Shown here in pieces: positions 16,491 to 52,301 of a stretch of DNA of 64,000 nucleotides; position 1 is the first letter of the stretch; each line of letters starts with the position of its first letter. The position numbers were made by a program, and so were the translations under genes. The notes below the pieces were generated by a model. That model did not search any database. It was not told the origin of the DNA and worked only from the letters and a program-made list of their open reading frames with translations. Where the stretch lies: contig OX597823.1 of NCBI GenBank assembly GCA_951406725.2, positions 76,632,001 through 76,696,000 on the forward strand, given 5' to 3'. The stretch is from Octopus vulgaris. Its lineage: Eukaryota.

Positions 16491-16708
16491 TTAATTTCTT
16501 TATTACCCACTAGGGGCGACACAGTAAACATACAATCACGAATGATGAAACAATTATGAACTTTTGGGGCCAGTTAAAAATCGGAATAAACAATAAAAAT
16601 CGAATGATTACACAAAGACAAATTTACAAAATTACAAAATGCAGTGGGGCGGGTCCGCGACCCCATGCTCCCCGCCACGACACTTAGCCTTGTGATTTCT
16701 TTTGCGTC

Positions 16709-20067: not shown

Positions 20068-20078
20068 TACTTACCTTA

Positions 20079-25100: not shown

Positions 25101-25548
25101 TCGACGCGCGCATCGACTATGGCGTTAAAGTCCCCTAGCATGACTATGGATTTTGACGTGCCAAGAAACTTCTCCAGGTCTCGATAAAAATCAGTCTGAC
25201 TCGAATTAGGTGCGTATACTGCTACCAGCCTGATTTCTTTACCACAACTGAACGTCAGATCTAAGACGACCAGCCTACCTTCTGAATCAGAAAAAAATCA
25301 ACTTTTTCTCTGAGACTATCTTTTTTAAGCAGGACCAACACCCCACTCCCACCCCCACCCCGCCGGCCAGGAGAAATAAATTTCTCGTAGCCATCCAGGA
25401 GCGGGAGTAGATATCTTGGCCCTTCGATTCGTGTCTCAGTAGCTACAATTACATCTAAACACTGCGACCTGACATCATTTAGTAAACGGCCTTGTTTCCA
25501 GTTCGATGTCAGGCCGCGCACATTTATGCAGCCAACGTGAACAGCCAT
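22167..25548 (-). pseudogene. E2 ORF2, frameshifted
   Basis: Fragments 23789-25141, 23230-23838 and 22167-23186 align to E5 ORF2. Confidence 0.9.
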
Positions 25549-25555
25549 AGTTCGC

Positions 25556-26790
25556 TTACCTTGTTTCGTCTGGGTCCGGCAGACGGGGGGAACCCGTCTC
25601 TTCTGCCTCTTGGGTCCGTGAAATCGGCGTGCTGATGCTCCTCCTTTCCACATCTTTCAGGGCATCTTCTTTGCTCATTCTGGATGGGCACACATCTTTT
25701 CGGAAGTCGTTCACCAGCGTGTTGAACACTCTCTGTCCCATCACGTAGCACTTTCATTCTCTTTATCGGGTTTCTTGGCTTTTTTCACCTCCCTTTTCTC
25801 TCTACTTTTGTTTTTCTCCGGGGAGGGGTTGTTATGTTTACGTTTTGTAGCTGCAACTTGTGACAACCCCTCCCCTTCTTCTGGTGCAGGTGTTGTCTCC
25901 GTTACTGCTACTTGAGAGCTTGGTTTTATGGGCTCATCTTTTTTCTCCTTCTCTGCCGGCCTACAGTCTTTTTTGATGTGTTCTTTTTTGCCACAGGTTA
26001 AACACCTGGGCTTCCGGCCCTCCACCATTACGGCCATCCGGCTGTCTCCAATTTCAATTATTTCACCTATTTCTTCTAAGACGTCCGGCTCAGCTTGTAT
26101 TGTTATCCTCACCTTCTGCCCCTGCCACTTTTTGGCATCTTCGACAGTGACGTCTCGTATTTCCAATTTCTCCTCTAGTCCTGCGGTGACTCATGCCACT
26201 ATTTGCTCGGGTTCGACTTCTGGCGGAATGTTTGTTATCGTTATTCTGGAGACGCGTCTCCCTCTATAGATAGGGAGAAGGGTTATCGCCTCTGTTCTTA
26301 GGGGAATCAAAAACTGCTCCCTTGCCTCCTCCTCTGTTCCAAATCTGGTTCCTACAGTTCCATATCTTTTTCCCTTGGTTATGAATTTAATCTTTTCCCA
26401 GATGGGTTTCATACACAGCTCTACTTCCTTTTCCGAAGAAAAGTCTATCTTTCTCTCTTTGTTTCGGTACGTTTTGTAAACGATAGACCTTCTTTCTATC
26501 TCTTCACGAGATTCTTGTGTCTGGTGTATTTTTATTTCGTACCCGCTTCTAGATACGGTTTTCTTAACCTCTTCCAGTTTGGACAAATCTATCTTCCTTC
26601 CTTTGGGACTTGCCGCTTCGGCGAAGTTCAACATCTTCTTTGCCAAGCTTGGCACGTCTATATTCCTGCGTACTTTTAATGCTTTTTTGGTTCCCCTACT
26701 TTCTTCTTTGTCGGTATCCGAGGAAAAAAGGGTATACCCACTTTTTCGGGGCTAGACATCCTGCTAACTGGTATTCCTTCTGGGCTGGAC
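25556..26790 (-). pseudogene. E2 ORF1, interrupted
   Basis: Fragments 26191-26655 and 25741-26166 (CLTCGKKEHIKKDC); stop at 26191 and an internal deletion relative to E5. Confidence 0.8.
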
Positions 26791-27227
26791 ATCTCGTCAG
26801 CTGGACTCTTGTTCAGGACCTGGGTTCGGTCCTCAGTACAAATATACTTCGACTAACAATTTGAAAAAAAACTTACTTTTTCTTTTTTTTCCTTTTCAAC
26901 AACCAACAGCTGGTAACAAAACACACCGACAAAAATATTTTCGATCAATAAGTAAACGGCACTACATGGATTCAGTTGGTGAAAGATTTTATTACTACCC
27001 ACAAGGGGCGAACATAGAGGGGACAATACAATCTAATGTGGGGTCACACACGAATGGGTTTTTACAATAAAGCGAATTTAAAAATTAACATGAAATTACA
27101 AAATAGACACAAAATCGAATGATGTAACAGACCGGAAGACATTACAGGTGGAGTGGGTGCGGGTTTAGCTCGGACCCCACGGGCCCCGCCTCCCCACTGA
27201 TACTTTTGGTTGCGCTTGGTATTACAT

Positions 27228-30200
27228 TTATGTTGTATCTTTCACTCGCAACTTTCGTGCTACATCTTTCCATCGTTCTTCATACACTCTCCTAGTCAGG
27301 CATATTCTCTCCAGCCCTATCTTCCTTTTCAGGTGAAAGATGAAATAATTCATCAAACCAGGGCCGGAGATGAACTTGCCTGACTGTAAACCTTTCATTC
27401 TCGTCTTCCATATCACCTCTTTCGCAATTGCTACTACAACGAGAAAACGAAACTTACCTTCATTCACGAGGAAATCCGGTGGGTCAATTTTTGTAATCGA
27501 CTCAGTCGACAGCTGTACTCTTCGTGTACCTGACAACAGCTGTTCGGCATAAACCCACACCTCAGACACGTCCGGACAATGAACAATAGCGTGCGGGACG
27601 GTTTCCCTATCCCGCCCGCATCTTGGACATATCGGACTGTCTTGGCCACCGTGCCTTGCGAGTTTATCCCGAACAGGTAGAGCTCCTCTGTAGCATTGCC
27701 ATGCCAGAGACTTCTGGAAGTTGTCCAGTGTCCTCGGCTTGAACGTACGTCGGAACAGACTGGCCAGCTGATTATCGTCGAGACCCAGGGTTTCCCCCAA
27801 GGTATCTTCACATTCCGCCTCTACCAACCCTCTATAGAAGAATGTGGTGGAACCCCCACCGCAGGCGTTGCCCGAGCGACGGAATAGCAGGAGAGCTTTG
27901 CGACACTCCGTGTACCAAGTACCAAGTTTCGATCTACGATTCAGCCAGGTTTCCCATCCACCGAAACTAGTGAACTTGGGAAACATCAGTTTTGCTAACG
28001 AAGACCACACCCGTTCACCATCCAGGTAGAGCCACAGATGTCTTAACCTCAGCGCATGTCTGCGCATCATCAGCCAAGGCATCCCTAGCCCACCCTTTAA
28101 CGGTTGTTGACAGCAAGTAGAGCGTTTCACAAGTGGTTTCCCGCCCATCCACAAGAAGTAGAAGAGCTGTCTTTCCAACTTGATCAACCACGAATCGGGG
28201 CAAGGAACGACGGAAAGGCGGTAGGTGATAACCGATGCGATAAACACATTGGCTACCTCCGCCCTCCCTTTCAGGGATAGCCACCGCCAAGACCAGGTCT
28301 TGGCTACTGCAGCCACCTTGCTCGTTACCTCGCCCCAATTCTTCTCTATTTGGAGGTCTGGACCGAACCAGACCCCTAGCAGTTTAATCGGACCCTCCGT
28401 CCAACGTCCCACGACGCTGTCAGGAGGCATCGACTTGCCTCTCCAGGTGCCGAGTTGCAAGCCGACTGACTTTTCGCGATTAACTTTTGCTCCTGTCACC
28501 GTCTCGTAAGCCTCTATGGCCTTGCCTACTTTACATAGGTGGTCCATTTCGGTTACGATGATGGTGATGTCATCCGCGAACGCTGACACTGATTTTCCAT
28601 TACCTGGCTGTCTCGGGATGCCGCTCAGTTTTCGCAGTAATGGCTCAAGAGCCATCACGTACAAAAGCGGGGAGAGCGGACACCCTTGACGAACCGAGCG
28701 TTTGATTTTGAACGGCTTCGACAAGAAGCCGTTCACCCGAACTACCGAGTCGATGTTATCATAAATTTGGATAATCCACCTGAGGAAGCCAAGGCTCAGC
28801 CCGAACTGTGCCAGGGCAGATACCAGGTAACGATGGTCGACCCTATCAAAAGCTTTAGATTGGTCTAAATGGACCAGTGCCCCACCCTTGCCAGAATCAC
28901 TATTAAACCCCTCTATAGTGTACCGCATTAGATGGAGATTATCCTGAATGGATCTGCCCGGAACGGCACATGTCTGTGCCTCTCCGATCAGACCATCCGC
29001 GACACGCGCCAATCTTTTCGATAACACTTTGGCCAAAATCTTCAACTCTGTGTTTAGCAGAGTGATGGGCCTGAAATTATCAATACACTACCCCTTGCTC
29101 GGGTCCTTTCTGACGAGAGTCACCACTCCCCGGCGCACAGATCTGAGTACAAGCCCGTTCTGCTGCCAGTTCGCATAGACCTCCGCCAGTAGGTGCCCGA
29201 ACAAGTCTGGCATACTCTTATATAACTCATAGGGTAGACCATCCAAACCCGGCGCCTTGCCCGCGCCGCAGTCTGCCATTGCCTCAACAACCTCCTCAGG
29301 CGTGATTGGCCCTTCACAGCCCTCCGCATCTCGCCCCGATAAGCGCGGCAGCCCGTCGAGTAGGTCCGTAAAGGCCCTCCTCCTATCCAGTCCGCCGCAC
29401 TCACCGAAAAGCTGAGCGAAGTGCTCCTGAAAGGCCTCACACATCTCCTCGGGTTCGTTTATCAACTCACCTTGTTGGTTCTTCAAAGATCGAATCGTGG
29501 CGTCGTTGCCATTCCGGGCTTCCACCACTCGGGCCCATCTCACGGCGTTGATTCCTTCACATCCCATATGACGGATTCTAGCCCTGACAATGCAGCCCAT
29601 GTGTTTGGCCTCGAGGTGCTGGTTTAACACCAGTCTCTTGGACGCCACCTGAGCCGCAGAGCCAGTTTTCATGGCTTCCTCTAATTCCTTAACTAGAGTA
29701 TTATCCTCTCTAGCCACTACTCCTATGCTATATCTAATAGACTCAAACTTGATGGCTCGTTTGAGGGCGTACCACCATTTGTTATTAATGATGGTACCGG
29801 ATAGTGCCCTCTGAATTATGTTCCTAATCCGGTCTTTGTACTCCTTAATCGCCAAAAGGGACGTATTAAGTTTCCAGTAACCGGATCCTCTATTTCTAAC
29901 CTTATCTATGTCAAGCTTACAAGTGACCATTTTATGATCACTGTAGCTGATCGGGTAAAACTGTGGACACTTAGCTATTTTACTGTCTACTTTTCTAATT
30001 AGAATTCTATCTATATATGACCTGGAAGATCCGTCGCTGTTTGACCATGTCCACAATGGAGCGTTCGGAAATTCCAGCCTATACGGATCTGCTAGCTCAA
30101 AGCGGCTTAGCAGTTCCATGAAGCCACTGTTACCTCTCCTATCTGGACACGAGCCAACACAATCTACATCCGCTTTGCAAATTGTGTTAAAGTCTCCTAG

Positions 30201-30617
30201 CACCACTAATGAATGCGAAGTACCAAGAAATATTTCTAGATCACGAAAATAATCACTTTGCCCTTTTTTACTGTTGGGTGCGTAAATTGCAACCAGTCTG
30301 ATAACTTTACCGTTACTGAACGTCAAATCCATGACGACCAGCCTACCTTCTGGGTCTGAAAAAATTAACTTTTTCTCAAAAACCCGGTTTCTTTTTAATA
30401 GGACCAACACCCCACCCCCGCCTGTAGGACTGGCCGGAGAGAAAAAACTCTCGTAGCCGTCAAACAGCGGGAGTAGACCTCTTGGCCCCTCCAACCGGGT
30501 TTCTGTAGCAACAATAACATCCAAATTGCGCGACCTGATATCATTAAGGAAGCGACCTTGCTTCCCGCTTGATCCCAGGCCGCGCACATTTAAACAACCA
30601 ACATAAATGTAGTCCAT
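27228..30617 (-). pseudogene. E3 ORF2 with a single in-frame TAG at 29088-29090
   Basis: 509 aa and 605 aa pieces in the same frame; GAG in E4/E6 is TAG here. Confidence 0.9.
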
Positions 30618-30625
30618 AACTTACC

Positions 30626-31978
30626 TTATATCAGTGGTTCGACTTGTTCGACTGGTTTGCCTTGTTTTTCGTCGTCTTCTTCGTTTTTATTTTTTTCCTT
30701 GGCTCGTGGGGGAGTCCGACGCAGGCCCTCGTATAGATATGGAGACATGTCCAGTCTCAGAGGGCCCACGTCGTGGAAGAATTCGGATTTTATCCGCCTG
30801 TAGTCCTTCCGGCCTATTTTGTACACAATACAGTCTTTCGTTTTCCTTACTCTCTCCACTTTGGCCATGGCTGCCAACACATTGACTAGTCTATTGTTGG
30901 TAGCCTTAATGGCCATAAATGAATTGGTTACTTCTTTTCTCTTCTTCTGGTTTTCTTCTTCTTGAGGGGTGGTTTCTGTTTTCCGGGTTTTTTTTTTGGT
31001 AACTTTTGACCACCCCTCCTCTTTTTCTTTTTCTGCACCACTCGATGATTTTTCTACCTCTTTGGTTTCCTCTGTTTTCTTTTCTGTTTCAGTTTCTTCC
31101 TTTTCCGACGGTGCTTCTACCTGCGGTTTAGGATGACACTCTGCTCTTACGTGTCCCTTTTTTCCGCAGCCGAAGCACCTCGGCTTTCTTCCTTCTACGA
31201 AAACCAACACTCTCTCCTCCTCATCGAGCCTCAGCACCTCTGGTATTTCCTCCAGTGTCTGGACCTCCGCTTGGATTGCCATTGTGATGCTCTGGCCCTG
31301 CCAAAACCCCTCCTCCTCCACTGTAGCTTGGAGGATATTGATTTTGTCCTTCAGGCCTAGCATCACTGCCGCCACCAGGCATGTGGCGTCCGCCTCTGGG
31401 GGAATATTCCTCATAACTATTTTTGAGGTCCTTCTGCCTCTGTACAAGGGTAGAAGGACTATGTTCCCTGCTTTTTGTGGTTCGGTAGATAGCCTCTTTG
31501 CTATTTCCTCGGTCCTAAACCTCACCTCTACCGTTCCGAACCTTCTTCCTCTGTTTATATAAGTTACGTCCTTTCTAATTGCCTTCAGACACTCCTCTAT
31601 TTTATTTTCTTCCACTTTTTGGATACTTTTTGTTGTCGTACTGTATGTTTTATAAATTATCCTTTTCTTTTCTATCTCTTCTTTTTTTCCAATATCTGCT
31701 TTTACTGCTATCTCATTTCCTTCTTTTTTCAGAAGGACTTCGTATTTTTCCAGATTATCTGTATTTATACTTTTTTGTTTACGCCCTGCAACTTCCGCGA
31801 ACTTCTTCGCTGGGGCCTTTTTTTCTGGCGTTACCGCCGGTTCTTTTTCCGGCGTCACCGCCGGTGGGCTTTCTTCACCTGAGGCTTGTGAGCTTCCATC
31901 ACCTGAGATTGGTGAATAAGAGATGGGGAATTCCATTTCGAGCTTTTTCAGTTGGCATTCACCGCCTTCCGAAGACAT
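30626..31978 (-). CDS. E3 ORF1
   Basis: 450 aa; CFGCGKKGHVRAEC knuckle. Confidence 0.88.
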   Translation of the reverse strand: MSSEGGECQLKKLEMEFPISYSPISGDGSSQASGEESPPAVTPEKEPAVTPEKKAPAKKFAEVAGRKQKSINTDNLEKYEVLLKKEGNEIAVKADIGKKEEIEKKRIIYKTYSTTTKSIQKVEENKIEECLKAIRKDVTYINRGRRFGTVEVRFRTEEIAKRLSTEPQKAGNIVLLPLYRGRRTSKIVMRNIPPEADATCLVAAVMLGLKDKINILQATVEEEGFWQGQSITMAIQAEVQTLEEIPEVLRLDEEERVLVFVEGRKPRCFGCGKKGHVRAECHPKPQVEAPSEKEETETEKKTEETKEVEKSSSGAEKEKEEGWSKVTKKKTRKTETTPQEEENQKKRKEVTNSFMAIKATNNRLVNVLAAMAKVERVRKTKDCIVYKIGRKDYRRIKSEFFHDVGPLRLDMSPYLYEGLRRTPPRAKEKNKNEEDDEKQGKPVEQVEPLI

Positions 31979-32451
31979 TTTGGCTTTGCAAGCCGTTTGT
32001 AGAAAATTTTTTTTTTAAATTGTTCCACACACAATAATTCCCCCGCGAGGGGGGAACTAAGTACGCAGCCTTCGCACGAAGGCCACTAACAGTCTTATAG
32101 AAAAGACACCAAAACAACAGTGATTAAGTTAACAAAGTAGCAGTAATTTACTAACCAAGCAGGCACTCGTATTCAGTCGGTCAAAGTTCAGCCTTTGAGT
32201 ATCTGTTTTATTATTACCCACAAGGGGCCAACAAAGAGGGGACAATACAACCTGATGTGGGGTCAGATTCTCGGATGGGGTTACAAAAAGGATGAGATTA
32301 AAAATTCCAAAAATTCACAAAAATGCAAAAATTATAAAATCGAATGAAAAAACAGACCGGAAGACATTACAGGTGGAGTGGGGCGGGTTCAGCTCGGACC
32401 CCACGAGCCCCGCCTCACCACTGATACTTTTGGTTTCGTTCTGATTTACAT

Positions 32452-35400
32452 TTATGTGGTGTCATCCATTCTCAACTTCCGTGCTACATCCTTCCATCGT
32501 TCTTCATACACTCTTTTAGTCAGGCATTTTCTCTCCAGCCCTATCTTCCTTTTCAGGTGGTAGATGAAGTAATTCATCAACCCAGGGCCGGATATGAACT
32601 TGCCTGACCGTGTACCTTTCATTCTCGTCTTCCATATCACCTCTTTCGCAATTGCTACCACAACGAGAAAACAATTCTTACCTTCTTTCGCGAGGAAATC
32701 TGGTGGGTCAATTTTTTTAATACACTCAGTCGACAGCTGTACTCTTCGTGTGCTTGACAACAGCTGTTCGGCATAAACCCACACCTCAGACACGACCGAA
32801 CAATGAACAATAGCGTGCGGGACGGTTTCCCTATCCCGCCCGCATCTTGGACACATCGGACTGTCCCGGCCACCGTGCCTTGCGAGTTTATCCCGAACAG
32901 GTAGAGCTCCTCTGTAGCATTGCCATGCCAGAGACTTCTGGAAGTTGTCCAGTGTCTTCGGCTCGAACGTACGTCGGAACAGACTGGCCAGCTGATTATC
33001 GTCGAGACCCAGGGTTTCCCCCAAGGTGTCTTCACATTTCGCCTCTACCAACCCTCTATAGAAGAATGTGGTGGAACCCCCACCGCAGGCGTTGCCCGAG
33101 CGACGGAATAGCAGGAGAGCCTTGCGACACTCCGTATGCCATGTACCGGGATTCGATCTACGATTCGGCCAGGTTTTCCGTCCACCGAAACTAGTGAACT
33201 TGGGAAACATCAGTTTTGCTAACGGAGACCACACCCGTTCACCATCCAGGTAGAGCCACAGATGTCTTAACCTCAGCGCATGTCTGCGCATCATCAGCCA
33301 AGGCATCCCTAGCCCACCCTTTAACGGTTGTTGACAGCAAGTAGAGCGTTTCACAAGTGGTTTCCCGCCCTTCCACAGGAAGTAGAAGAGCTGTCTTTCC
33401 AACTTGGTCAACCACGAATCGGGGCATGGAACGACGGAAAGGCGGTAGGTGATAACCGATGCGATAAACACATTGGCCACCTCCGCCCTCCCTTTCAAGG
33501 ATAGCCACCGCCAATACCAGGTCTTGGCTACTGCAACCACCTTGCTCGTTACCTCGCCCCAATTCTTCTCTATTTGGAGGTCTGGACCGAACCAGACCCC
33601 TAGCAGTTTAATCGGACCCTCCGTCCAACGTCCCACGACGCTGTCAGGAGGCATCGACTTGCCTCTCCAGGTGCCGAGTTGCAAGCCGACTGACTTTTCG
33701 CGATTAACTTTTGCTCCTGTCACCGTCTCGTAATCCTCTATGGCCTTGCCTACTTTACATAGGTGGTCCATTTCGGTCACGATGATGGTGATGTCGTCCG
33801 CGTACGCTGACACTGATTTTCCATTACCTGGCTGTCTCGGGATGCCGCTCAGTTTTCGCAGTAATGGCTCAAGAGCCATCACGTACAAAAGCGGGGAGAG
33901 CGGACACCCTTGACGAACCGAGCGTTTGATTTTGAACGGCTTCGACAAGAAGCCGTTCACCCGAACTACCGAGTCGATGTTGTCGTAAATTTGGATAATC
34001 CACCTGAGGAAGCCAAGGCTCAGCCCGAACTGTGCCAGGGCAGACACCAGGTAACGATGGTCGACCCTATCAAAAGCTTTAGGATTGGTCTAAATGGACC
34101 AGTGCCCCACCCTTGCCAGAATCACTATTAAACCCCTCTATAGTGTACCGCATTAGATGGAGATTATCCTGAATGGTTCTGCCCGGAACGGCACATGTCT
34201 GTGCCTCCCCGATCAGACCATCCGCGACACGCGCCAATCTTTTCGATAACACTTTGGCCAAAATCTTCAACTCTGTGTTTAGCAGAGTGATGGGCCTGAA
34301 ATTATCAATGCACTCCCCCTTGCTCGGGTCCTTTCTGACGAGAGTTACCACTCCCCGGCGCACAGATCTGGGTATAAGCCCGTTCTGCTGCCAGTTCGCA
34401 TAGACCTCCGCCAGTAGGTGCCCGAACAAGTCTGGCATACTCTTATATAACTCGTAGGGTAGACCATCCAAACCCGGCGCCTTGCCCGCGCCGCAGTCCG
34501 CCATTGCCTCCACTACCTCCTCAGGCGTGATTGGCCCTTCACAGCCCTCCGCATCTCGCCCCGATAAGCGCGGCAGCCCGTCGAGTAGGTCCGTAAAGGC
34601 CCTCCTCCTATCCAGCCCGCCGCACTCACCGAAAAGCTGAGCGAAGTGCTCCTGAAAGGCCTCACACATCTCCTCGGGTTCGTTTATCAACTCACCTTGT
34701 TGGTTCTTCAAAGATCGAATCGTGGCGTCGTTGCCATTCCGGGCTTCCACCACTCGGGCCCATCTCACGGCGTTGATTCCTTCACATCCCATATGACGGA
34801 TTCTAGCCCTGACAATGCAGCCCATGTGTTTGGCCTCGAGGTGCTGGTTTAACACCAGTCTCTTGGCCGCCACCTGAGCCGCAGAGCCAGTTTTCATGGC
34901 TTCCTCTAATTCCTTAACTAGAGTAGTTTCCCTTCTAGCCTCTCTAGACACTACTCCTATGCTATATCTAATAGACTCAAACTTGATGGCTCGTTTGAGG
35001 GCGTACCACCATTTGTTATTAATGATGGCACCAGACAGTGCCCTCTGAATTATGGTCCTAATCCGGTCTCTGTACTCCTTAATCGCCAAAAGGGACGTAT
35101 TAAGTTTCCAGTAACCGGATCCTCTATTTCTAACCTTATCTATGTCAAGCTTACAAGTGACCATTTTATGATCACTGTAGCTTATCGGGTGAAACTGTGG
35201 ACACTTAGCTATTTTACTGTCTACCTTTCTAATTAGAATTCTATCTATGTATGACCTGGAAGATCCGTCGCTGTTTGACCATGTCCACAATGGAGCGTTC
35301 GGAAATTCCAACCTATAAGGATCTGCTAGCTCAAAGCGGCTTAGCAGTTCCAGGAAGCCTGAGTTACCTTTTCTATCTGCATTCGAGCCAACACAATCTA

Positions 35401-35854
35401 CATCCGCTTTGCAAATTGTGTTAAAGTCTCCTAGCACAACTAATGAATGCGAAGTACCGAGAAAGTTTTCTAGATCACGAAAATAATCACTTTGCCCTTT
35501 TTTACTGTTGGGTGCGTAAATTGCAACCAGTCTGATAACTTTACCGTTACTGAACGTCAAATCCATGACGACCAGCCTACCTTCTGGGTCTGAAAAAATT
35601 AACTTTTTCTCAAAAACCCGGTTTCTTTTTAGTAGGACCAACACCCCACCCCCGCCTGTAGGACTGGCCGGAGAGACAAAACTCTCGTAGCCGTCAAACA
35701 GTGGGAGTAGACCTCTTGGCCCCTTTAACCGGGTTTCTGTAGCAACAATAACATCCAAATTGCGCGACCTGATATCATTAAGGAAGCGACCTTGCTTCCC
35801 GCTTGATCCCAGGCCGCGCACATTTAAACAACCAACATAAATGTAGTCCATCAC
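32452..35854 (-). pseudogene. E4 ORF2 with a 1-bp insertion near 34082
   Basis: 591 aa and 531 aa pieces; extra g in aaagctttaggattgg versus aaagctttagattgg in E3/E6. Confidence 0.9.
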
Positions 35855-35864
35855 TTACCTTATA

Positions 35865-37207
35865 TCAGTAGTTTGGCTTGTTCGACAGGTTCGCCTTGTT
35901 CTTCTTCGCTTTTATTTTTTTCCTTGGCTCGTGGGGAGTCCGACGCAGGCCCTCGTATAGATATGGAGACATGTCCAGTCTCAGAGGGCCCACGTCGTGG
36001 AAGAATTCGGATTTTATCCTCCTGTAGTCCTTCCGGCCTATTTTGTACACGATAAAGTCTTTCATTTTTCTTATTCGTTCCACCTTGGCCATGGCTGCCA
36101 ACACATTGACTAGTCTGTTGTTGGTAGCCTTAATGGCCATAAATGAAGAAGTAACATCTTTTCTTTTCTTCAGGTTTTCTTCTTCTTGAGGGGTGGTTTC
36201 CGTTTTCCGTTTTTTTTTGGTAACTTTAGACCACCCCTCCTCTTTTTCGTTTTCTTTTTCCTTTTCTGCACCACTTGCTGTTTTTTCCACCTCTTTGGTT
36301 TCCTCTGTTTTCTTTTTCTTCTCCGCTTCTTCTTTTTCCGACGGTGCTTCTACCTGCGGTTTAGGTTGACACTCCGCTCTTACGTGTCCCTTTTTTCCGC
36401 AGCCTCGGTTTTCTTTCCTTCTACAAATACCAATACTCTCTCCTCCTCATCGAGCCTCAGCACCTCTGGTATTTCCTCCAGTGTCTGGGCCTCCGCTTGT
36501 ATTGCCATTGTGATAATCTGGCCCTGCCAAAATCCCTCCTCCTCCACTGTAGCTTGGAGGATATTGATTTTTTCCTTCAGGCCCAGCATCACTGCCGCCA
36601 CCAGGCATGAGGCGTCCGCCTCTGGGGGAATATTCCTCATCACTATTTTTGAGGTCCTTCTTCCTCTGTACAAGGGTAGAAGGACTATGTTTCCTGCTTT
36701 TTGAGGTTCTGTAGATAGCCTCTTTGCTATTTCTTCGGTCCTGAACCTCACTTCTACCGTTCCGAACCGTCTTCCTCTGTTTATATATGTGATGTCCTTT
36801 CTAATTGCCTTCAGGCACTCCTCTATTTTACACTCTTCCACTTTTTGTATACTTTTCGTTGTCATGCTGTATGTCTTGTAAATTATTCTTTTCTTTTCAA
36901 TCTCTTCCTTTTTTTCCACAACTTTTTTAACTGCTATTTCATTTCCTTCTTTTTTTAGAAGGGCTTCATATTTATCCAGGTTATCTATATTTATGTTTTT
37001 CTGTTTGCGCCCTACAACTTCCGCGAACTTCTTTGCTGGGGCCTTTTTTCCTGGCGTTACCGCCGATTCTTTTTCCGGTGTCACCGCCGGCGAGCTTCCC
37101 TCACCCGAGGCTTGAGAGCCTTCATCACCTGAGATAGGTGAATAGGAAATGGGGAATTCCATTTCGAGTTTTTCTTCCAGTTGGCATTCACTGCCTTCCA
37201 AAGACAT
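35865..37207 (-). pseudogene. E4 ORF1 with a frameshifting deletion in the zinc knuckle near 36405
   Basis: Aligns to E3 ORF1 on both sides of a small deletion. Confidence 0.85.
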
Positions 37208-37812
37208 TCTGGCTTTGCAGCCGTTTGTAGAAAAATATTTTTTTTTTGTTTTTGGATGTGTTTCACACACGATGACACACAATAATTCCCCCGCGGGGGG
37301 GGGGGGGAACTAAGTACACAACCTTCGCACGAAGGCCACTAACCGTCTTATTGAAAAGACACCAAAACAACAGTGTTTTAAATTAACACAGCAACAGTAA
37401 TCTACTAACTTTCAAATTCAACAACAATATTTCACTGACAAAATAAAACTCACGTCTCAGTTTTTGAGTATCGATGAAAAAGTAACATCTAACAAACACT
37501 ACATGACGAGTATTCAGTTGGTGAAAGTTCAGTTTTTCAGTGTCTATGATTTCTTTATTACCCACAAGGGGCCAACGAAGAATGGGACAATACATCATGA
37601 TTTGGGGTCATGAGACACAGATGGTATTTACAGAAAAAATGAACTTTTTTTTTTTTTTTTATAAAAAAAATTACAAAAAATCGGATAAATCGAATGATAT
37701 ACAACAACAACAACACAACATAAAGGTAACACATGAAGCGGGAACACCAGGATTGCCGACCCCACGAGCCCTGCTATTCCCACCGAAACTCGGCAGCCAA
37801 CCAACAGCATGT

Positions 37813-40800
37813 TTACGTGGCTCCTCTCACTCGCAGCAACCGTGCCACACGCTTCCATATTTTATCGAACTCACACGCAGACAGACACCTCTTCTCCAAC
37901 TCCACCTTTCTTTTTAGGTGGAACCTGAAATAGGTCACCAAGGCGGAGCCAGAGATCACGGTGCCTGTCGTTACCGCTTTCATTCTGGTCTTCCATATAC
38001 ACTCTTTCGCTACTGCTACTGTACTGAGAAAGCAATGCTTACCTTCACTTGTCAAAAAGCTAGGCGAGTCAATTTTTATAATTGTCTCAGCCGATAGCTG
38101 TACTCTTCTTCCGTCCGACAACAGGTGTTCGGCATATACCCACACGTCCGAGATTTTCGGACACTGAACAATAGCGTGCGAGACTGTTTCCAGATCCCGC
38201 TCGCATCTTGGGCAGTTCGATGGTCCACTCCAACCATGCCTTGTGAGTTTATCCCGAACGGGTAAAGCTCCTCTGAAACATTGCCAGGTCAAAGACTTCT
38301 GGAAGTTATCCAATGTCTTCGGCCCGAACGTCCTTCGGAACAGGCTGTCCAACTGATTTCTATCGAGGCCCAAGGTCCTTCCTAAGGCATCGTCATTTCC
38401 GGCCTCTACCAACCTGCTATAAAAAGCTGCGGTGGTACCAAAGCCGCCGGCATTGCCCGACTTGCGGAAGTGGCAGAGTGCCTTATGGCACTCCGAATAC
38501 CACATGCTCGATCTAAGTCTGCGACGAAACCAGGTTTCTCTGCCACCGAAACTGACAAAGCTGGGGAACATCTGCTTCGCAAGCGGGGACCACACCCGTT
38601 CACCATCCAGGTAGAGCCAAAGGTGCCTTAACCTCAGCGCATCTCTGCGCATCATCAGCCAAGGCATCCCCAAGCCACCCTTTAACGGTTTCTGACAGCA
38701 GATAGAACGTCTTACAAGAGGAGCACTTCCCTTCCACAAAAAGTGGAAGATCTGTCTCTCCAACTTGCTCAACCACGAATCCGGACAAGGGACGACGGTC
38801 AGGCGGTAGGTGATGACCGATGCTAAAAACACATTGGCCACCTCCGCCCTCCCTTTCAAGGACAGCCACCGTCCGGACCAAGTCCCGACCGCGTGAGCCA
38901 CCTTGCCCGACACCTCAGACCAGTTCTTTTCTATCTGGAGACCTGGACCAAACCAGATCCCTAGCAGCTTAACCGGGCCCTCCGTCCAGCATCCCACGAT
39001 GCTATTCGAAGGCATCGACTTGCCCCTCCAGGTGCCGAGTTGCAAGCCGACCGATTTTTCCCGGTTAATCTTTGCTCCTGTCACCGTCTCGTAAGCCTTG
39101 ATGGCATCTCCCACATTACGTAGGAGTTCCACCTCGGTCACGATGATGGTGATGTCGTCCGCATACGATGTCACAGATCCTCCACCTCCTGGATTCATCG
39201 GGATGGCGCTCAGCTTTCGCAGCAATGGCTCAAGAGCCATCACATACAAAATCGGGGAGAGCGGACACCCTTGACGAACAGACTGTTTGATGCGGAACGG
39301 CCTCGAGAGGAAGCCATTCACCCGAACGATCGAGTCGATGTTATCGTACAATTGTATGATCCACCTGAGGAAGCCAATGCCCAGACCGAACTGCGCCAGC
39401 ACGGACACCAGGTACCGATGGTTCACCCTATCAAACGCTTTACTCTGGTCTAAATGGACCAATGCCCCACCCTTGCCAGAGTCATTCCCAAACCTCTCTA
39501 TTGTGTAGCGTACTAGGTGAAGATTGTCCTGGATGGTTCTTCCTGGGACCGCACAAGTTTGTGCCTTCCTGATCAGACCACCCGCGACACGCGTCAACCT
39601 TTTCGCTAACACCTTGGCCAAAATCTTCACCTCTGTGTTTAGCAGTGTGATGGGCCGAAAATTGTCTATGTTATCCCCCTTGCTCGGGTCCTTTCTGATC
39701 AGCGTCACCACTCCCCGACGTACAGATCTGGGAATGAACCCATTCTGCCGCCAGTTCGTGAAAACGCCGGCCAGCACGTTCCCGAACAAGTCTGGCATTC
39801 TTTTATATATTTCGTAAGGTAAACCATCGATCCCCGGCGCCTTGCCTTCACCGCAGTCGGCCAGGACCTCAGCTATCTCCTCAGGCGAGATCGACGCTTC
39901 ACAGCTCTCCGCATCCTGCCCCGAGAGGCGCGGCAGCCCGGCGAGGATGTCCGTTAGGTCCACCCTCTCCTCCGGTCCGCCGTCGCCCCCAAAGAGCCGA
40001 GCGAAGTGCTCCTGAAACGTCCGACACATCTCCTCTGGTTCGGTGATCACATCACCTCGCCCATTCGTCACAGACTTAATTGTGGAATCGTTTCCACGTT
40101 GAGCCTCCACAACTCGTGCCCATCCGGCAGCCTTGATACCCACGCACCCCATTGCGCGAATTCTAGCTCTGACGATACAACCCATATGTTGGGCTTCGAG
40201 GTGCTGGTTCAACTCCAGTCTCTTCAGCCTAACCTGGGCCCCATCGCCAGCTCTCATGGCTTCCTCTAAGGCCTTAACTAGCCCCATCTCTTTCTTACGC
40301 CCGCTAGTTGCTAGACCTATGCTGTATCTAACGGACTCGTATTTTATGGCTCTTTTGAGGGCGTACCACCATTTGTTGTTAATAATGGAACCGGTTAACG
40401 CCCTCTTCACTACTAACTCGATCCGCTTTCTGTACTCCTCAATAGCCAGGAGGGACTTATTGAGTTTCCAGTAGCCGGATCCCCTACTACCTAACTTATC
40501 TAGGTTCAGTTCGCCAGTGACCATCCTGTGATCGCTGTAACTGACCGTGTGAAACTGTGGACACTTAACTAATCCTTTATCTATTTTTCTAATAAAAATT
40601 CTGTCTATGTAAGACCCGATAGACCCGTCGCCACTTAACCACGTCCACTGTGGAGCGTTCGGGAATTCAAGTCTGTAGGGATCTACCAGCTGAAAGTGAC
40701 TCAGTAGATCCCGGAAGCCAGCGTTTGGTTTCCTATCTTTCGAGCCAATGCCATCGACGCGCGCGTCGACTATGGCATTAAAGTCCCCTAACATGACTAT

Positions 40801-41199
40801 GGATTTTGACGTGCCAAGAAACTTCTCCAAGCCTCGATAAAAATCAGTCTGACCCGTATTAGGTGCATACACCGCCACCAGCCTGATTTCTTTACCACAA
40901 CTGAACGTCAGATCTAAGACGACCAGCCTACCTTCTGAATCAGAAAAAATCAACTTTTTCTCTGCGACACTATCTTTTTTAAGCAGAACCAACACCCCAC
41001 TCCCGCCCACATGCCGTCCAGGAGAAATAAATTTCTCGTAGCCTTCCTTGAGCGGGAGTAGATCTCTTGGCCCTTCGATTCGTGTCTCAGTAGCGACAAT
41101 TACATTTAAGTTCCGCGCCCTGATATCGTTTAGAAAACGACCTTGTTTCCAGTTCGCTACCAGGACGCGCACATTTATGCAACCAACGTAAACAGCCAT
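37813..41199 (-). CDS. E5 ORF2: APE endonuclease, reverse transcriptase and C-terminal zinc finger (1128 aa)
   Basis: APE motifs INVR, ATET, VYAP, GDFN, YIDR, SDH; RT motifs KAPGIDG, FRPITLLN, LDQSKAFDRV, QGCPLSP, YADD; CPRC..H..C. Confidence 0.95.
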   Translation of the reverse strand: MAVYVGCINVRVLVANWKQGRFLNDIRARNLNVIVATETRIEGPRDLLPLKEGYEKFISPGRHVGGSGVLVLLKKDSVAEKKLIFSDSEGRLVVLDLTFSCGKEIRLVAVYAPNTGQTDFYRGLEKFLGTSKSIVMLGDFNAIVDARVDGIGSKDRKPNAGFRDLLSHFQLVDPYRLEFPNAPQWTWLSGDGSIGSYIDRIFIRKIDKGLVKCPQFHTVSYSDHRMVTGELNLDKLGSRGSGYWKLNKSLLAIEEYRKRIELVVKRALTGSIINNKWWYALKRAIKYESVRYSIGLATSGRKKEMGLVKALEEAMRAGDGAQVRLKRLELNQHLEAQHMGCIVRARIRAMGCVGIKAAGWARVVEAQRGNDSTIKSVTNGRGDVITEPEEMCRTFQEHFARLFGGDGGPEERVDLTDILAGLPRLSGQDAESCEASISPEEIAEVLADCGEGKAPGIDGLPYEIYKRMPDLFGNVLAGVFTNWRQNGFIPRSVRRGVVTLIRKDPSKGDNIDNFRPITLLNTEVKILAKVLAKRLTRVAGGLIRKAQTCAVPGRTIQDNLHLVRYTIERFGNDSGKGGALVHLDQSKAFDRVNHRYLVSVLAQFGLGIGFLRWIIQLYDNIDSIVRVNGFLSRPFRIKQSVRQGCPLSPILYVMALEPLLRKLSAIPMNPGGGGSVTSYADDITIIVTEVELLRNVGDAIKAYETVTGAKINREKSVGLQLGTWRGKSMPSNSIVGCWTEGPVKLLGIWFGPGLQIEKNWSEVSGKVAHAVGTWSGRWLSLKGRAEVANVFLASVITYRLTVVPCPDSWLSKLERQIFHFLWKGSAPLVRRSICCQKPLKGGLGMPWLMMRRDALRLRHLWLYLDGERVWSPLAKQMFPSFVSFGGRETWFRRRLRSSMWYSECHKALCHFRKSGNAGGFGTTAAFYSRLVEAGNDDALGRTLGLDRNQLDSLFRRTFGPKTLDNFQKSLTWQCFRGALPVRDKLTRHGWSGPSNCPRCERDLETVSHAIVQCPKISDVWVYAEHLLSDGRRVQLSAETIIKIDSPSFLTSEGKHCFLSTVAVAKECIWKTRMKAVTTGTVISGSALVTYFRFHLKRKVELEKRCLSACEFDKIWKRVARLLRVRGAT

Positions 41200-41211
41200 A
41201 GTTTGCCTACC

Positions 41212-42543
41212 TTATTTCCTCTGGGTCCGGCCGGCGGGGGGACCCGTCTCTTCTGCCTCAGATGAACGTGGACTCGGCGCGTTGTTGTTCTTTCTTTCTG
41301 CATCCTTCAGGGCATCCTCCTTGCTCATTCTGGGTGTGCCTACGTCTTTTCTAAAGTCGTTTGCATACGTGTTGAACCCTTTCAGTCCCATCACGTAGCA
41401 TCTCCAGCCTCCACCTTTCGCTTCCATCTCCACCTCCTCGACGTGTTGAGTCTCCACTCTGCGTACCACTTCTCTGTTTGCGGTATTCATCGCCACATAC
41501 ACCCTGTTCTCCCTCTCCGGCTTCTTCGCCTTCTTTACTTCTCTCTTCTCTTTGCTTATAATTTTCTCCGGGGAGGGGTTGTTGTGCTTTCGTTTTGTCG
41601 CAGCAACCTGTGACCACCCCTCCCCTACTTCTGTTGCGGCTGTCGTTTCTGTAGCCGCCACTTGAGCACTTGGTTTTGTGGGTACGCTCTTTTCCTTCTC
41701 CGCCGGCTTACAGTCCTTTTTGATGTGGCCCTTCTTGCCACAGGTGAAACACCTGGGCTTCCGGCCCTCCACCATTACTGCCATCCGGCTCTCTCCTATT
41801 TCGATGACCTCGCCTATCTCATCCAAGGCGACCTGCTCTGCCTGTACAATAATTTGTACTTTCTGTCCATGCCACTTTTTGGCTTCTACCACCGTGGCAT
41901 CACGCACTTCCATTTGGTCTTCCAGTCCTGCAGTGACCCCAGCCACTATCAGTTCGGGCTCGATCTCCGGCGGTATGTTGGCAACCGTAATTTTTGAAAT
42001 ACGCCTTCCTCTATAGATAGGTAGAAGGGTTATTGTGCCTGTTTTTAGGGGCTTCATTGAATGTTCCCTAGCTTCTTCTTCTGTCTTGAACCTAGTTTCC
42101 ACAGTTCCGTACCTCTTACCCCTGGTTAAAAATGTGATTTTATCCCAGATGGGTAGTAGGCACGCCTCCACTTCCTTTTCCGACGAAAAGTCTATTTTCC
42201 TTTCTATGTTACGGTATGTTTTGAATATTACCGTTCTCTTCTCTATCTCTTCGAGAGATTCTTTCATCTGGTTTAGTTTAATCTTGTACCCGTCTCGAGA
42301 CACTATCTTCTTCGCTTCTTCCACCCTGGTTAGGTTAATCCTTCTTTCCTTCGGACTAGCTGCCTCGGCGAAGTTTAGCACCTTCCTTGCCATGCTTGGC
42401 ACATCTATACTCTTTCTGACTCTCCCACTTTCCTCCTCGTCCGAGAAAATGTCGGGTATAGCCATTATTCCTTCCAGGTTGGACATCTCTGGACTAAGGA
42501 CCTGGGTTTGGACTTCCGCTCTGTCCGCCTTCGGGCTGGCCAT
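41212..42543 (-). CDS. E5 ORF1
   Basis: Open frame from the ATG at 42543 (the ORF track starts at GTG 42573); CFTCGKKGHIKKDC knuckle. Confidence 0.88.
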   Translation of the reverse strand: MASPKADRAEVQTQVLSPEMSNLEGIMAIPDIFSDEEESGRVRKSIDVPSMARKVLNFAEAASPKERRINLTRVEEAKKIVSRDGYKIKLNQMKESLEEIEKRTVIFKTYRNIERKIDFSSEKEVEACLLPIWDKITFLTRGKRYGTVETRFKTEEEAREHSMKPLKTGTITLLPIYRGRRISKITVANIPPEIEPELIVAGVTAGLEDQMEVRDATVVEAKKWHGQKVQIIVQAEQVALDEIGEVIEIGESRMAVMVEGRKPRCFTCGKKGHIKKDCKPAEKEKSVPTKPSAQVAATETTAATEVGEGWSQVAATKRKHNNPSPEKIISKEKREVKKAKKPERENRVYVAMNTANREVVRRVETQHVEEVEMEAKGGGWRCYVMGLKGFNTYANDFRKDVGTPRMSKEDALKDAERKNNNAPSPRSSEAEETGPPAGRTQRK

Positions 42544-42962
42544 TATTGGCCTACCCCTCCTCAGCGTCTTCACTGAAATTGGTCAAATAAATTTGACTAA
42601 CGAAAAAAACCAACTTACTTTCTTTTTTTTCTTTTTGTTTTTGTTTTTAGTAGCAACAGTGACTTTATATAGGTGCCGACCAGGCGGGACAAAACATTCG
42701 CGTCAAAAATGAATAAGTGATTTTATTATTACCCACAAGGGGCGAACATAGAGGGGACAAAACAATCTGATTTGGGGTCAGACATACGAATGGTTTTTAC
42801 ACAAAAACGGTTTTAAAAATATCATGAAATTACAAAAATACACACAAAATCGGATGATGGAATAGACCGGAAGACATTACAGATGGAGTGGGTGCGGGTT
42901 CAGCTCGGACCCCACGAGCCCCGCCTCCCCACCGACACCCTTGGTTGCACTTGGCATTACAT

Positions 42963-45900
42963 CTACGTTGTGACTCTCACTCGCAACCATCGTGCCACAT
43001 CCCTCCATCGCTCCTCATACACTCTCCTAGTCAGGCGTATTCTCTCCAGCCCTATCTTCCTTTTCAGGTGAAAGATGAGGTAATTCATCAAACCAGGGCC
43101 GGAGATGAACTTGCCTGACTGTAAACCCCTCATTCCCGTCCTCCACATCACCTCCCTCGCAATTGCCACCACAACGAGAAAACGAAACCTACCCTCATTC
43201 ACGAGGAAATCCGGTGGGTCAACCCTTGCAATCGACTCAGTCGACAGCTGCACTCCTCGTGTACCCGACAACAGCTGTTCGGCATAAACCCACACCTCAG
43301 ACACGTCCGGACAATGAACAATAGCGTGCGGGACGGTTTCCCTATCCCGCCCGCATCTTGGACATATCGGACTGTCTTGGCCACCGTGCCTTGCGAGTTT
43401 ATCCCGAACAGGTAGAGCTCCTCTGTAGCACTGCCATGCCAAAGACTTCCGGAAGCTGTCCAGCGTCCTCGGCTCGAACGCACGTCGGAACAGACTGGCC
43501 AGCTGATTGTCGTCGAGACCTAGGGTTTCCCCCAAGGTATCTTCACATTCCGCCTCTACCAACCCTCTATAGAAGAGTGTGGTGGAACCCCCACCGCAGG
43601 CGTTGCCCGAGCGACGGAATAGCAGGAGAGCCTTGCGACACTCCGTGTACCAAGTACCAAGTTTCGATCTACGATTCAGCCAGGTTTCCCATCCACCGAA
43701 ACTAGTGAACTTGGGAAACATCAGTTTTGCTAGCGAAGACCACACCCGTTCACCATCCAGGTAGAGCCACAGATGTCTTAACCTCAGCGCATGTCTGCGC
43801 ATCATCAGCCAAGGCATCCTTAGCCCACCCTTTAACGGTTGTTGACAGCAAGTAGAGCGTTTCACAAGTGGTTTCCCGCCCTTCCACAAGAAGTAGAAGA
43901 GCTGTCTTTCCAACTTGATCAACCACGAATCAGGGCAAGGAACGACGGAAAGGCGGTAGGTGATAACCGATGCGATGAACACATTGGCCACCTCCGCCCT
44001 CCCTTTCAGGGATAGCCACCGCCAAGACCAGGTCTTGGCTACTGCAGCCACCTTGCTCGTTACCTCGCCCCAATTCTTCTCTATTTGGAGGTCTGGACCG
44101 AACCAGACCCCTAGCAGTTTAATCGGACCCTCCGTCCAACGTCCCACGACGCTGTCAGGAGGCATCGACTTGCCTCTCCAGGTGCCGAGTTGCAAGCCGA
44201 CTGACTTTTCGCGATTAACTTTTGCTCCTGTCACCGTCTCGTAAACCTCTATGGCCTTGCCTACTTTACATAGGTGGTCCATTTCGGTTACGATGATGGT
44301 GATGTCATCCGCGTACGCTGACACTGATTTTCCGTTACCTGGCTGTCTCGGGATGCCGCTCAGTTTTCGCAGTAATGGCTCAAGAGCCATCACGTACAAA
44401 AGCGGGGAGAGCGGACACCCTTGACGAACCGAGCGTTTGATTTTGAACGGCTTCGACAAGAAGCCGTTCACCCGAACTACCGAGTCGATGTTATCGTAAA
44501 TTTGGATAATCCACCTGAGGAAGCCAAGGCTCAGCCCGAACTGTGCCAGGGCAGATACCAGGTAACGATGGTCGACCCTATCAAAAGCTTTAGATTGGTC
44601 TAAATGGACCAGAGCCCCACCCTTGCCAGAATCACTATTAAACCCCTCTATAGTGTACCGCATTAGATGGAGATTATTCTGAATGGATCTGCCCGGAACG
44701 GCACATGTCTGTGCCTCTCCGATCAGACCATCCGCGACACGCGCCAATCTTTTCGATAACACTTTGGCCAAAATCTTCAACTCTGTGTTTAGCAGAGTGA
44801 TGGGCCTGAAATTATCAATGCACTCCCCCTTGCTCGGGTCCTTTCTGACGAGAGTCACTACTCCCCGGCGCACAGATCTGGGTATAAGCCCGTTCTGCTG
44901 CCAGTTCGCGTAGACCTCCGCCAGTAGGTGCCCGAACAAGTCTGGCATACTCTTATATAACTCATAGGGTAGACCATCCAAACCCGGCGCCTTGCCCGCA
45001 CCGCAGTCCGCCATTGCCTCAACCACCTCCCCAGGCGTGATTGGCCCTTCACAGCCCTCCGCATCTCGCCCCGATAAGCGCGGCAGACCGTCGAGTAGGT
45101 CCGTAAAGGCCCTCCTCCTATCCAGCCCGCCGCACTCACCGAAAAGCTGAGCGAAGTGCTCCTGAAAGGCCTCACACATCTCCTCGGGTTCGTTTATCAA
45201 CTCACCTTGTTGGTTCGTCAAAGATCGAATCGTGGCATCGTTACCATGCTGAGCTTCCACCACTCGGGCCCATCTCACGGCGTTGATTCCTTCACATCCC
45301 ATATGACGGATTCTAGCCCTGACAATGCAGCCCATGTGTTTGGCCTCGAGGTGCTGGTTTAACACCAGTCTCTTGGCCGCCACCTGAGCCGCAGAGCCAG
45401 TTTTCATGGCTTCCTCTAATTCCTTAACTAGAGTAGTTTCCCTTCTAGCCTCTCTAGCCACTACTCCTATGCTATATCTAATAGACTCAAACTTGATGGC
45501 TCGTTTGAGGGCGTACCACCATTTGTTATTAATGATGGTACCGGATAGTGCCCTCTGAATTATGTTCCTAATCCGGTCTTTGTACTCCTTAATCGCCAAA
45601 ATGGACGTATTAAGTTTCCAGTAACCGGATCCTCTATTTTTAACCTTATCTATGTCAAGCTTACAAGTGACCATTTTATGATCACTGTAGCTGATCGGGT
45701 AAAACTGTGGACACTTAGCTATTTTACTGTCTACTTTTCTAATTAGTATTCTATCTAAATATGACCTGGAAGATCCGTCGCTGTTTGACCATGTCCACAA
45801 TGGAGCGTTCGGAAATTCCAGCCTGTAAGGATCTGCTAGCTCAAAGCGGCTTAGCAGTTCCATGAAGCCACTGTTACCTTTCCTATCTGGACGCGAGCCA

Positions 45901-46358
45901 ACACAATCTACATCCGCTTTGCAAATTGTGTTAAAGTCTCATAGCACCACTAATGAATGCGAAGTACCAAGAAAGTTTTCTAGTTCACGAAAATAATCAC
46001 TTTGCCCTGTACTGTTGGGTGCGTAAATTGCAACCAGTCTGATAACTTTACCGTTACTGAACGTCAAATCCATGACGACCAGCCTACCTTCTGGATCTGC
46101 AAAAATTAACTTTTTCCCAGAAACCCGGTTTCTTTTTAATAGGACCAACACCCCACTCCCGCCTGTAGGACTGCCAGGAGAGAAAAAACTCTCGTAGCCG
46201 TCAAACAGCGGGAGTAGACCTCTTGGCCCCTCTAACCGGGTTTCTGTAGCAACAATGACATCTAAACTACGCGACCTGATATCATGCAGGAAGCGACCTT
46301 GCTTCCAGCCTGCTCCCAGGCCGCGCACATTTAAACAACCAACATAAATGTAATCCAT
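42963..46358 (-). pseudogene. E6 ORF2 with TGA at 45939-45941 (GGA of GDFN) and an A-to-G cluster at the 3' end
   Basis: 139 aa and 966 aa pieces in the same frame. Confidence 0.9.
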
Positions 46359-46372
46359 TACTTACCTTTATA

Positions 46373-47675
46373 TCAGTGGTTCGGTTTTTTCCTCTTCTTC
46401 CTTCTCTTTTTCTGGGCCTCGTGGGGAGTCTGACGCAGGCCCTCGAATATATATGGAGATGTTATATCCATTCTGAGAGGGCCTACGTCATGGAAAAATT
46501 CGGACTTTATCCGTCCGTAATCCTTCCGGCCTATTCTGTACAAAACATAATCGTTTTTCTTCCCTATTTTTTCTACTTTGGCCATCGCTGCCAACACATT
46601 TCCAAGTCTATTGTTCGTGGCCTTAACGGCCATAAATGAGTTCAATGACTCCCTTTTTTTTTTTTTGGTTTACTTTGGGAGGGGTGGTTTCAGTTTTTCT
46701 TTTTTTCCTGGTGATTTTTGACCACCCCTCCTCCTTTTTCGTTTCCTCGCTCTTTTTTTCTTCCTCCGTTGGTTCCGCTGCCTTTGTCACCTCCACACCT
46801 TCAGTCGTCCCTCCTGGGCCGACCAGCGCTGTTTCTGACGACACGGCTTCTTCTTTTCCACTTGGCTGAGCTGCTTCCTGCGGTTTGGGTTGGGGCTGGC
46901 ATTCTGCCCTTACATGCCCTTTCTTACCGCAGCCGAAGCACCTCGGCTTTCTGCCTTCTACGAAGACTGTGACTCTTTCATCTTCGCTTATCTTTAGAGT
47001 CTCTGGGATCTCTTCCAGGGTTTGTACTTCTGCTTGTATGGCTATTATTATTTTTTGCCCTTTCCAGAATTCTTCTTCTTCTACGGTGGCCTGGAGGATG
47101 TTTATTTTTTCCTCCAGGCCTACCATAACTGCTGCCACCAGGACTTCGGCATCCGCTTCTGGCGGAATGTTATTCATTGTGATCTTGGAAGTTCTCTTGC
47201 CTTTATACAGGGGTAGGAGAACAATATCCTCTGCTTTTATGGGTTCCATTGATAGCTTCTTTGCTACTTCCTCTGACGTGAATCTCACCTCCACTGTGCC
47301 GAATTTCTTCCCTCGATTGATATATGTTATTTTATCCATAATCGGCTTTAAGCAGTTTTCGATCTTTTTCTCCTCTATTTTTTGTATTGCTCTGCTTGTT
47401 ATACTGAATGTCTTATAGATTATTCTCCTATTCGAAATTTCCTCCTGTATTTGGGCGTTTGAAGCTACGGTTACTTCCGTGCCTTCTTTCGACACACAGT
47501 CCGCATGTTTTCCCAGGTTGTCCACGTTGATTTTTTTAATTTTCTTCCCAGCTACTTCAGAAAATTTTCTCGCTGGTACTGGAATGTCTTTTTCCTTTGG
47601 CGACCCCGCCCCTTTTTTCTTTGGCGACACCGCCGGTGATCCTGCATCACTTGAATTCGAGATAGGGGATTCCAT
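46373..47675 (-). pseudogene. E6 ORF1 with a frameshift in a homopolymer near 46660 (possibly a sequencing error)
   Basis: 350 aa and 90 aa pieces; CFGCGKKGHVRAEC. Confidence 0.8.
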
Positions 47676-47934
47676 CTCTGATAACTGGCTTTAACAAGCC
47701 CTTGGCACACCCAAGATAATGATAGTTCTTTCCCCCACGGAGGGGGGAAACACCAACACGAAGCCCTCGCACGAAGGCCGACTTCAACAGTTTTACAACA
47801 ACACAGACACAGCTAGACAACAGTAGATCACAATGGAGAAAATATACACAATATAATAACTTACTATACACGCAAAAAATTGATTTCAGACCGGTGTTCA
47901 ATATGAATAAGTGTCATTATATCACATCCATATA

Positions 47935-51364: not shown

Positions 51365-51372
51365 TCATATAT

Positions 51373-51412
<40 letters not shown>

Positions 51413-52102: not shown

Positions 52103-52133
<31 letters not shown>

Positions 52134-52262: not shown

Positions 52263-52301
<39 letters not shown>

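Follow-up and report, generated by a model that had tools for sequence, protein, structure and literature searches.

A strand-specific A-to-G cluster in one genomic copy of an L1-clade retrotransposon, probably derived from ADAR-edited RNA

The window, i.e. the whole stretch of 64,000 nucleotides analysed here, is located on a 118-Mb contig of a 2.8-Gb assembly. Self-BLAST revealed six minus-strand elements of approximately 5.2 kb each, arranged head-to-tail over ~16.5–47.9 kb of the window (see Table 1 for coordinates). Based on ORF2 identity, they fall into three groups, comprising E3, E4 and E6 (95–97%), E2 and E5 (95%), and E1, which is 75–82% identical to the others. Pfam searches with the intact ORFs of E5 and with ORF2 of E6 identified APE, RT and zf-RVT domains in ORF2, and a CCHC knuckle in ORF1. 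Among solved structures, human L1 ORF2p is the best match of the element ORF2 (E 6e-67). The ORF1 knuckle and the APE-RT-zf organization of an ORF2 nearest to L1 ORF2p mark the E6 family, on sequence grounds, as an L1-clade LINE. We take it to be probably of the Tx1 group (Tx1-type). As in other L1-clade elements, the ORF1 knuckle and the three ORF2 domains are accompanied by a target-site duplication (TSD); the formation of head-to-tail arrays by apparently landing at the 5' ends of relatives distinguishes the family from them. The 11-bp TSD around the RT-encoding E6 indicates insertion via an RNA intermediate, by target priming, and its position places the insertion point directly in front of E5. 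A second copy of the 5' flank of E6 was not found in the assembly. E6 is inferred to be the newest unit of the array, given where it lies and how close it is to L031, a copy outside the window.

Table 1. Coordinates of the array, of E6 and of the edited and unedited segments at its 3' end
Feature	Position in window	Strand	Remarks
E1–E5	16495..42708	-	Five further head-to-tail units of three subfamilies; sisters E3, E4; outgroups E1, E2, E5
TSD, 3' copy (11 bp)	42709..42719	-	11-mer present twice in window, once per end of E6
E6	42720..47902	-	Full-length L1-clade non-LTR retrotransposon, 5'-most array unit (self-BLAST, Pfam RVT_1 + zf-RVT, junctions)
Unedited distal 3' UTR	42720..42932	-	0/44 A vs L031, ~21 expected; last ~210 nt
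A>G hypermutated tract	42933..43481	-	ORF2 end, stop codon and first 30 nt of 3' UTR; 38/163 A changed vs L031
Edited patch 3	42933..43014	-	13/37 A, including stop TAA>TAG
E6 ORF2	42963..46364	-	APE, RT, zf-RVT; private in-frame stop 45941-45943, not A>G
Unedited gap 2	43015..43127	-	0/31 A, 10.6 expected from context; predicted hairpin 43029-43120
Edited patch 2	43128..43266	-	18/45 A; no unusual local structure (z -0.1)
Unedited gap 1	43267..43430	-	0/35 A (context predicts 12.7); hairpin domain predicted at 43275-43411; codes for zf-RVT knuckle
Edited patch 1	43431..43481	-	6/15 A vs majority, one being a shared polymorphism
E6 ORF1 region	46365..47693	-	Open frame 47693-46625, then shifted near homopolymer runs
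TSD, 5' copy (11 bp)	47903..47913	-	11-mer present twice in window, once per end of E6

Several observations bear on the recent history of the family. E5 (window 37813–42582) has an open ORF2 frame of 1132 aa and an open ORF1 frame of 456 aa; since, moreover, a 501-bp test stretch of E5 is matched at 100% by other loci, its subfamily must be very young. In two pairs of copies located on different contigs, L093/L067 and L127/L088, the members are identical across 3.6 kb, which suggests that the E3/E6 subfamily was active until very recently. E3, E4 and E6 are mosaic, with near-identical ORF2 (42963–46364) and with ORF1 and UTRs (46365–47900) that differ by 15–30%, implying that ORF1/5' parts have been swapped. 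Mixed-subfamily head-to-tail arrays are found in the window (16495–47902) and at the loci L002–L190, one flank being seen 31 times, and the 3' ends of most copies adjoin apparent 5' ends of related elements, which suggests self-targeted insertion of the family. No RNA gene that could serve as target site was detected, as Rfam gave no match in 14000–50000 of the window. A degenerate (TA)n array of 1.6 kb occupies window positions 51352–52927.

An earlier note on this DNA had described 18 differences between 43096–43275 (E6) and 27361–27540 (E3), all of them A>G in the sense of the element; a recount gave exactly the same figures. The nearest relative of E6 is L031, with a divergence of 0.6% outside the tract. 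Within 42933–43481 (549 nt), E6 differs from L031 by 38 A>G, one T>C and one A>T, so that 38 of 40 differences are of one type, whereas none of the 620 A in the remaining 2527 aligned nt was changed (Fisher p=3e-28). The change is strand-specific, since the 38 A>G (163 A) are matched by no T>C cluster (1 of 127 T). When the majority of 31 other copies is taken as reference over 42900–43490 (591 nt), E6 shows 38 A>G and no G>A. The same comparison yields 0–3 A>G in 30 of these 31 copies, and ten in E4, where they occur amid 35 changes of other types. The rest of E6, compared with three full-length sisters at 4509 positions, contains an even mix of 11 A>G, 15 G>A, 12 T>C and 6 C>T. A sense-strand G>A cluster of the APOBEC type is not present, as the tract lacks G>A and the polarity excludes G>A in the sisters.

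At most of the changed sites, A is found in E3 and E4 as well as in the distant E1, E2 and E5 (75–81% identical). The changes are thus derived in E6, as had been claimed, and G is not the ancestral state of the outgroup copies. Among the 38 sites called against the majority, the G occurs in none of the 31 copies at 33 sites and in one copy each at three; the other two (43475, 42901) are shared polymorphisms. Two additional sites, 43152 and 42980, are visible only in comparison with the sister lineage. CpG decay in the sisters was rejected as a cause, because only 5 of 36 sites follow a C.

The neighbours counted previously for the 18 sites (5' A 11, U 5, C 1, G 1; 3' G in ten) were reproduced. 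Over the tract, compared with L031, only one of 53 A with a 5' G was changed, as opposed to 37 of 110 with other 5' neighbours (p=9e-7). Changed A are preceded by A (23), U (9), C (5) or G (1), and unchanged A by G (52), C (29), A (27) or U (17); in runs of A the first one is never the changed one, and the 5-mers around the edited sites are diverse. This avoidance of 5' G, combined with a preference for A and U, is, as read from the sequence, the signature of ADAR. Upstream depletion of G at hyper-edited sites is described for all Metazoa species studied in Porath 2017 (PMC5625713). As for the 3' neighbour, 18 of 47 A followed by G were changed, compared with 20 of 116 others (p=0.007). The resulting 3'-G share of 47% (18/38) is enriched, as for G-preferring ADARs, yet exceeds the 20–25% G downstream given for octopus hyper-editing in the same article (PMC5625713). 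Genes for proteins with an adenosine-deaminase domain (A_deamin, PF02137), of the ADAR, ADAT1 or ADAD type, scored over the cut-off at four loci (C1, C5, C6, C30).

The A>G clustering proposed in the earlier note stands, but the tract (42933–43481) is not continuous; it consists of three patches split by two gaps, with 23% of A edited across the tract and 35–40% within the patches. Folding of the unedited sister predicts closed stem-loop domains at 43411–43275 and 43120–43029. With the bounds of the gaps set by the edits alone, folding z-scores were -4.6 (sense) and -4.5 (antisense) for gap 1, and -5.0 (sense) and -6.8 (antisense) for gap 2; they were near 0 for patches 2 and 3, and patch 1 itself is partly structured (z -3.8). 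Strong hairpins are common in the element, the z level of the two gaps being reached by 27 of 126 and 12 of 127 windows, and the match of both gaps to hairpins, with a joint chance probability of only about p=0.02, was noticed post hoc. About a dozen strong predicted hairpins (z ~-4.5 or lower) are distributed along the element RNA, including the coding sequence (L038:3896–9075). By eye, the hairpins of both gaps show no apparent conservation in E1, E2 and E5.

Since 15 of the 31 coding edits are synonymous, selection on the protein cannot explain the empty gaps. They may correspond to hairpins that were kept folded or covered while their flanks paired with complementary RNA. Equilibrium co-folding with antisense E1, E4 or E5 melted the hairpins into duplex in five of six cases, the exception being gap 2 with antisense E5, which stays folded; sparing would thus need kinetic trapping or a protein cover.

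A partner RNA covering 42933–43481 was detected neither in the element itself nor elsewhere in the window or at the loci fetched, and an inverted fragment with ends near 42933 and 43481 was not found either. An intramolecular long duplex was rejected as the ADAR substrate, because no inverted match exceeds 15 nt and the edited A lie in the less-paired sequence, and an antisense partner from a diverged subfamily was discarded because co-folding did not reproduce the patches. Fold-back templates can nevertheless arise in the family, as 5' inverted duplicates exist in two of 121 loci (L031 and L091). L031, which is truncated at its 5' end, contains an inverted duplicate of 1.34 kb (L031:7443–8784) of the E6-equivalent region 43491–44834; the end of this duplicate is 10 nt from the 5' edge of the edited tract of E6, which may be due to chance. 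At the 5' end of the other locus (L091:145–276), the final 132 nt of the element are duplicated in inverted orientation.

With respect to the encoded protein, 18 of the 176 C-terminal codons differ between E6 and L031, if the stop position is counted as a codon. The differences are due to A>G alone in 16 codons, to A>G together with A>T in one, and to T>C in one. The 17 residues changed by A>G show mostly K>R, T>A, I>V and R>G replacements, and no stop was made. The ORF breaks of E6, i.e. the in-frame stop in ORF2 and the frameshift of ORF1 (Table 1), are unrelated to A>G. As E6 integrated at full length despite heavy editing, a restriction of the element by editing is not apparent.

The abundance of such copies was assessed with a 35-base pattern in which A or G was allowed at each A, which matched 196 places in the assembly. 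Patterns with two of the G of E6, or with the G set and up to three mismatches, matched only E6, indicating that there is neither a daughter nor a similarly edited copy in that segment. Of the first 100 places listed, 79 were fetched, in addition to those that were already among the copies compared or lay within the window, and the 96 further places were covered by the patterns alone. Across 125 aligned rows, of which 110 were left once identical ones had been collapsed, the highest A>G count per 300 nt was 24, in E6, with at most 3 in any other copy. Among 186 of 188 segments of the three subfamilies, some of which overlap, the next best count after E6 was four A>G in 200 nt, and none of E1–E5 contains an A>G cluster. 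Within the subfamily of E6, the scan for strand-specific A>G clusters suggested in the earlier note, which extended to ~110 distinct copies or segments, thus returned E6 only. A mild A>G excess in L031 (4 in 200 nt) was not accepted as a sign of editing, the sites being mostly shared polymorphisms with a 5' G.

Singleton A>G in the other copies amount to 7.1 per 10,000 A, as compared to 8.7 T>C per 10,000 T, and they show no depletion of 5' G. In view of this lack of both an A>G excess and a 5'-G depletion, ADAR is not a detectable mutator of the family. The proposed role of ADAR as a heritable mutator or as a restriction factor finds no support, as only one copy in ~110 is edited, this copy has no daughters, and no stop was made. 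Judged by the copies compared, E6 is a rare single event, a leak of RNA editing into DNA and not a family-wide mutational force.

The core of the earlier reading, namely hyper-editing followed by retrotransposition, agrees with a derived, sense-only A>G cluster in ADAR context, the TSD and the presence of PF02137 genes; the mutator or restriction role attached to it is not supported. We consider it likely, with good confidence, that a double-stranded stretch of the element RNA was hyper-edited by ADAR and then retrotransposed. A source copy close to L031 would have been transcribed, and its RNA corresponding to 42933–43481 would have paired with complementary RNA, supplied by an inverted neighbouring fragment or an antisense transcript. 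Two stable hairpins, folded or covered by protein, as well as the distal 3' UTR would have escaped editing. Reverse transcriptase would then have copied the inosines as G at the target site before E5, and the G state would have become fixed in the assembled DNA.

Among the alternatives, an assembly artefact, by which edited RNA reads or a systematic base-calling error entered the consensus at E6, retains the most weight, albeit as an unlikely explanation. The G state is seen only in the assembly, and bases originating from RNA would show the ADAR context as well. In four public DNA runs, available as contigs only and compared at 90% likeness, the pieces listed carry the unedited base at six edit sites (43189–43229) in all four; no RNA run was among the matches listed, the best share of words being 0.40. 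The contigs of the same four DNA runs, however, also lack the private non-edit marker of E6 at 43079, and the E5/E6 junction is not spanned by any of the pieces listed. The individuals may therefore lack E6, or the contigs may have dropped it. Furthermore, unedited reads from ~200 near-identical copies (196 pattern matches) would be expected to dominate an RNA pile-up, and a majority vote over RNA molecules edited at different sites would presumably not fix 38 changes in one copy. A motif-driven error of the caller would recur in the same contexts in other copies, which it does not, and the edited 5-mers are diverse.

Somewhat less likely still is deamination of the sense DNA by ADAR or another adenosine deaminase in an RNA:DNA hybrid, such as an antisense R-loop or an insertion intermediate, although the same strand and a similar context would be expected. 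Had the cDNA strand been edited, the changes would be T>C, for which there is no cluster, and 38 deoxyinosines would have to escape repair jointly. ADARs do edit DNA in hybrids, in model substrates, but according to a review (PMC12925331) this activity is limited to dA-C mismatches or mutant enzymes.

A burst of reverse-transcriptase errors, caused by skewed dNTP pools or by adenine-directed mutagenic copying as in DGRs, would likewise be strand-specific, one-off and linked to retrotransposition, and polymerase behaviour may change at hairpins. We regard it as very improbable nonetheless, because 38 of 39 changed A became G rather than any base, the near-total block by a 5' G is an ADAR rule, and other copies made by the same RT lack an A>G bias. 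Gene conversion or template switching from a diverged, G-rich subfamily might be invoked in view of the mosaic structure of the family, but is the least credible alternative and already largely refuted, since the 549 nt contain only two non-A>G differences, lineage markers within the tract are common to E6 and L031 (43442, 43037), the G haplotype has no match at any other locus when up to three mismatches are allowed, and the distant subfamilies mostly have A.

Retrotransposition of an ADAR-edited RNA, the preferred reading, has its closest counterparts in avian retroviruses. As cited in two reviews (PMC8586724, PMC12925331), A-to-G hyperediting was recorded in RAV-1 U3 (Felder 1994) and in ALV (Hajjar and Linial 1995). 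As in E6, clustered A>G changes, affecting a large share of the A in a bounded region, passed from edited RNA through reverse transcription. Those viruses, however, are exogenous, and an inverted repeat is known in one case, whereas E6 belongs to the endogenous non-LTR elements of an assembled animal genome, and no partner turned up in E6, in the window or at the loci fetched.

APOBEC footprints (Knisbacher and Levanon, PMC4866542; Zaranek et al., PMC2873906) resemble the cluster of E6 in being strand- and context-biased clusters of one substitution in a single copy, recognized by comparison of copies. They differ in that they consist of G>A from cDNA deamination, were screened in LTR elements and damage ORFs, whereas E6 is a LINE with A>G and no stop made. 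Such DNA-editing footprints are reported to be absent from 19 invertebrate genomes (PMC4866542, PMC2873906). ADAR hyper-edited repeat RNA (Porath 2017, PMC5625713) shares with E6 the dense A>G clusters and the depletion of 5' G in repeat-derived dsRNA, but is normally seen in RNA only, while the E6 cluster is in genome sequence. For human L1 RNA, PMC5224506 reports that it is unedited by ADAR1 in cells and that the restriction of LINE-1 by ADAR1 is independent of editing. In both systems ADAR meets LINE RNA; E6 was heavily edited, with integration apparently unblocked. The literature covered, which excludes most subscription journals, yielded no description of an ADAR-type A>G cluster that became fixed in a germline genomic non-LTR copy.

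If confirmed in reads, the E6 cluster would mean that hyper-edited LINE RNA can survive, be reverse-transcribed at full length (5.2 kb) and become DNA, and that this occurs in an element class where editing was reported absent, in an apparently invertebrate lineage. It also sets an initial limit to how often this happens, about one young copy of the family in 100, which argues against a major mutator role. The sharp boundaries between edited and unedited sequence lead to testable predictions on RNA structure and protein binding at the 3' end of the LINE. More speculatively, and in our view rather doubtfully, the edit map of E6 might be an in vivo structure footprint of the retrotransposing RNA, a 550-nt duplex that was edited everywhere but at two folded hairpins and in the 3' UTR, which proteins of the element itself would have held; genomic LINE copies could then be fossils of single germline RNAs edited by ADAR. 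If so, screening genomes for copies of this kind would document germline editing and the architecture of LINE RNPs from DNA alone, and would allow measurement of how often RNA editing is made heritable.
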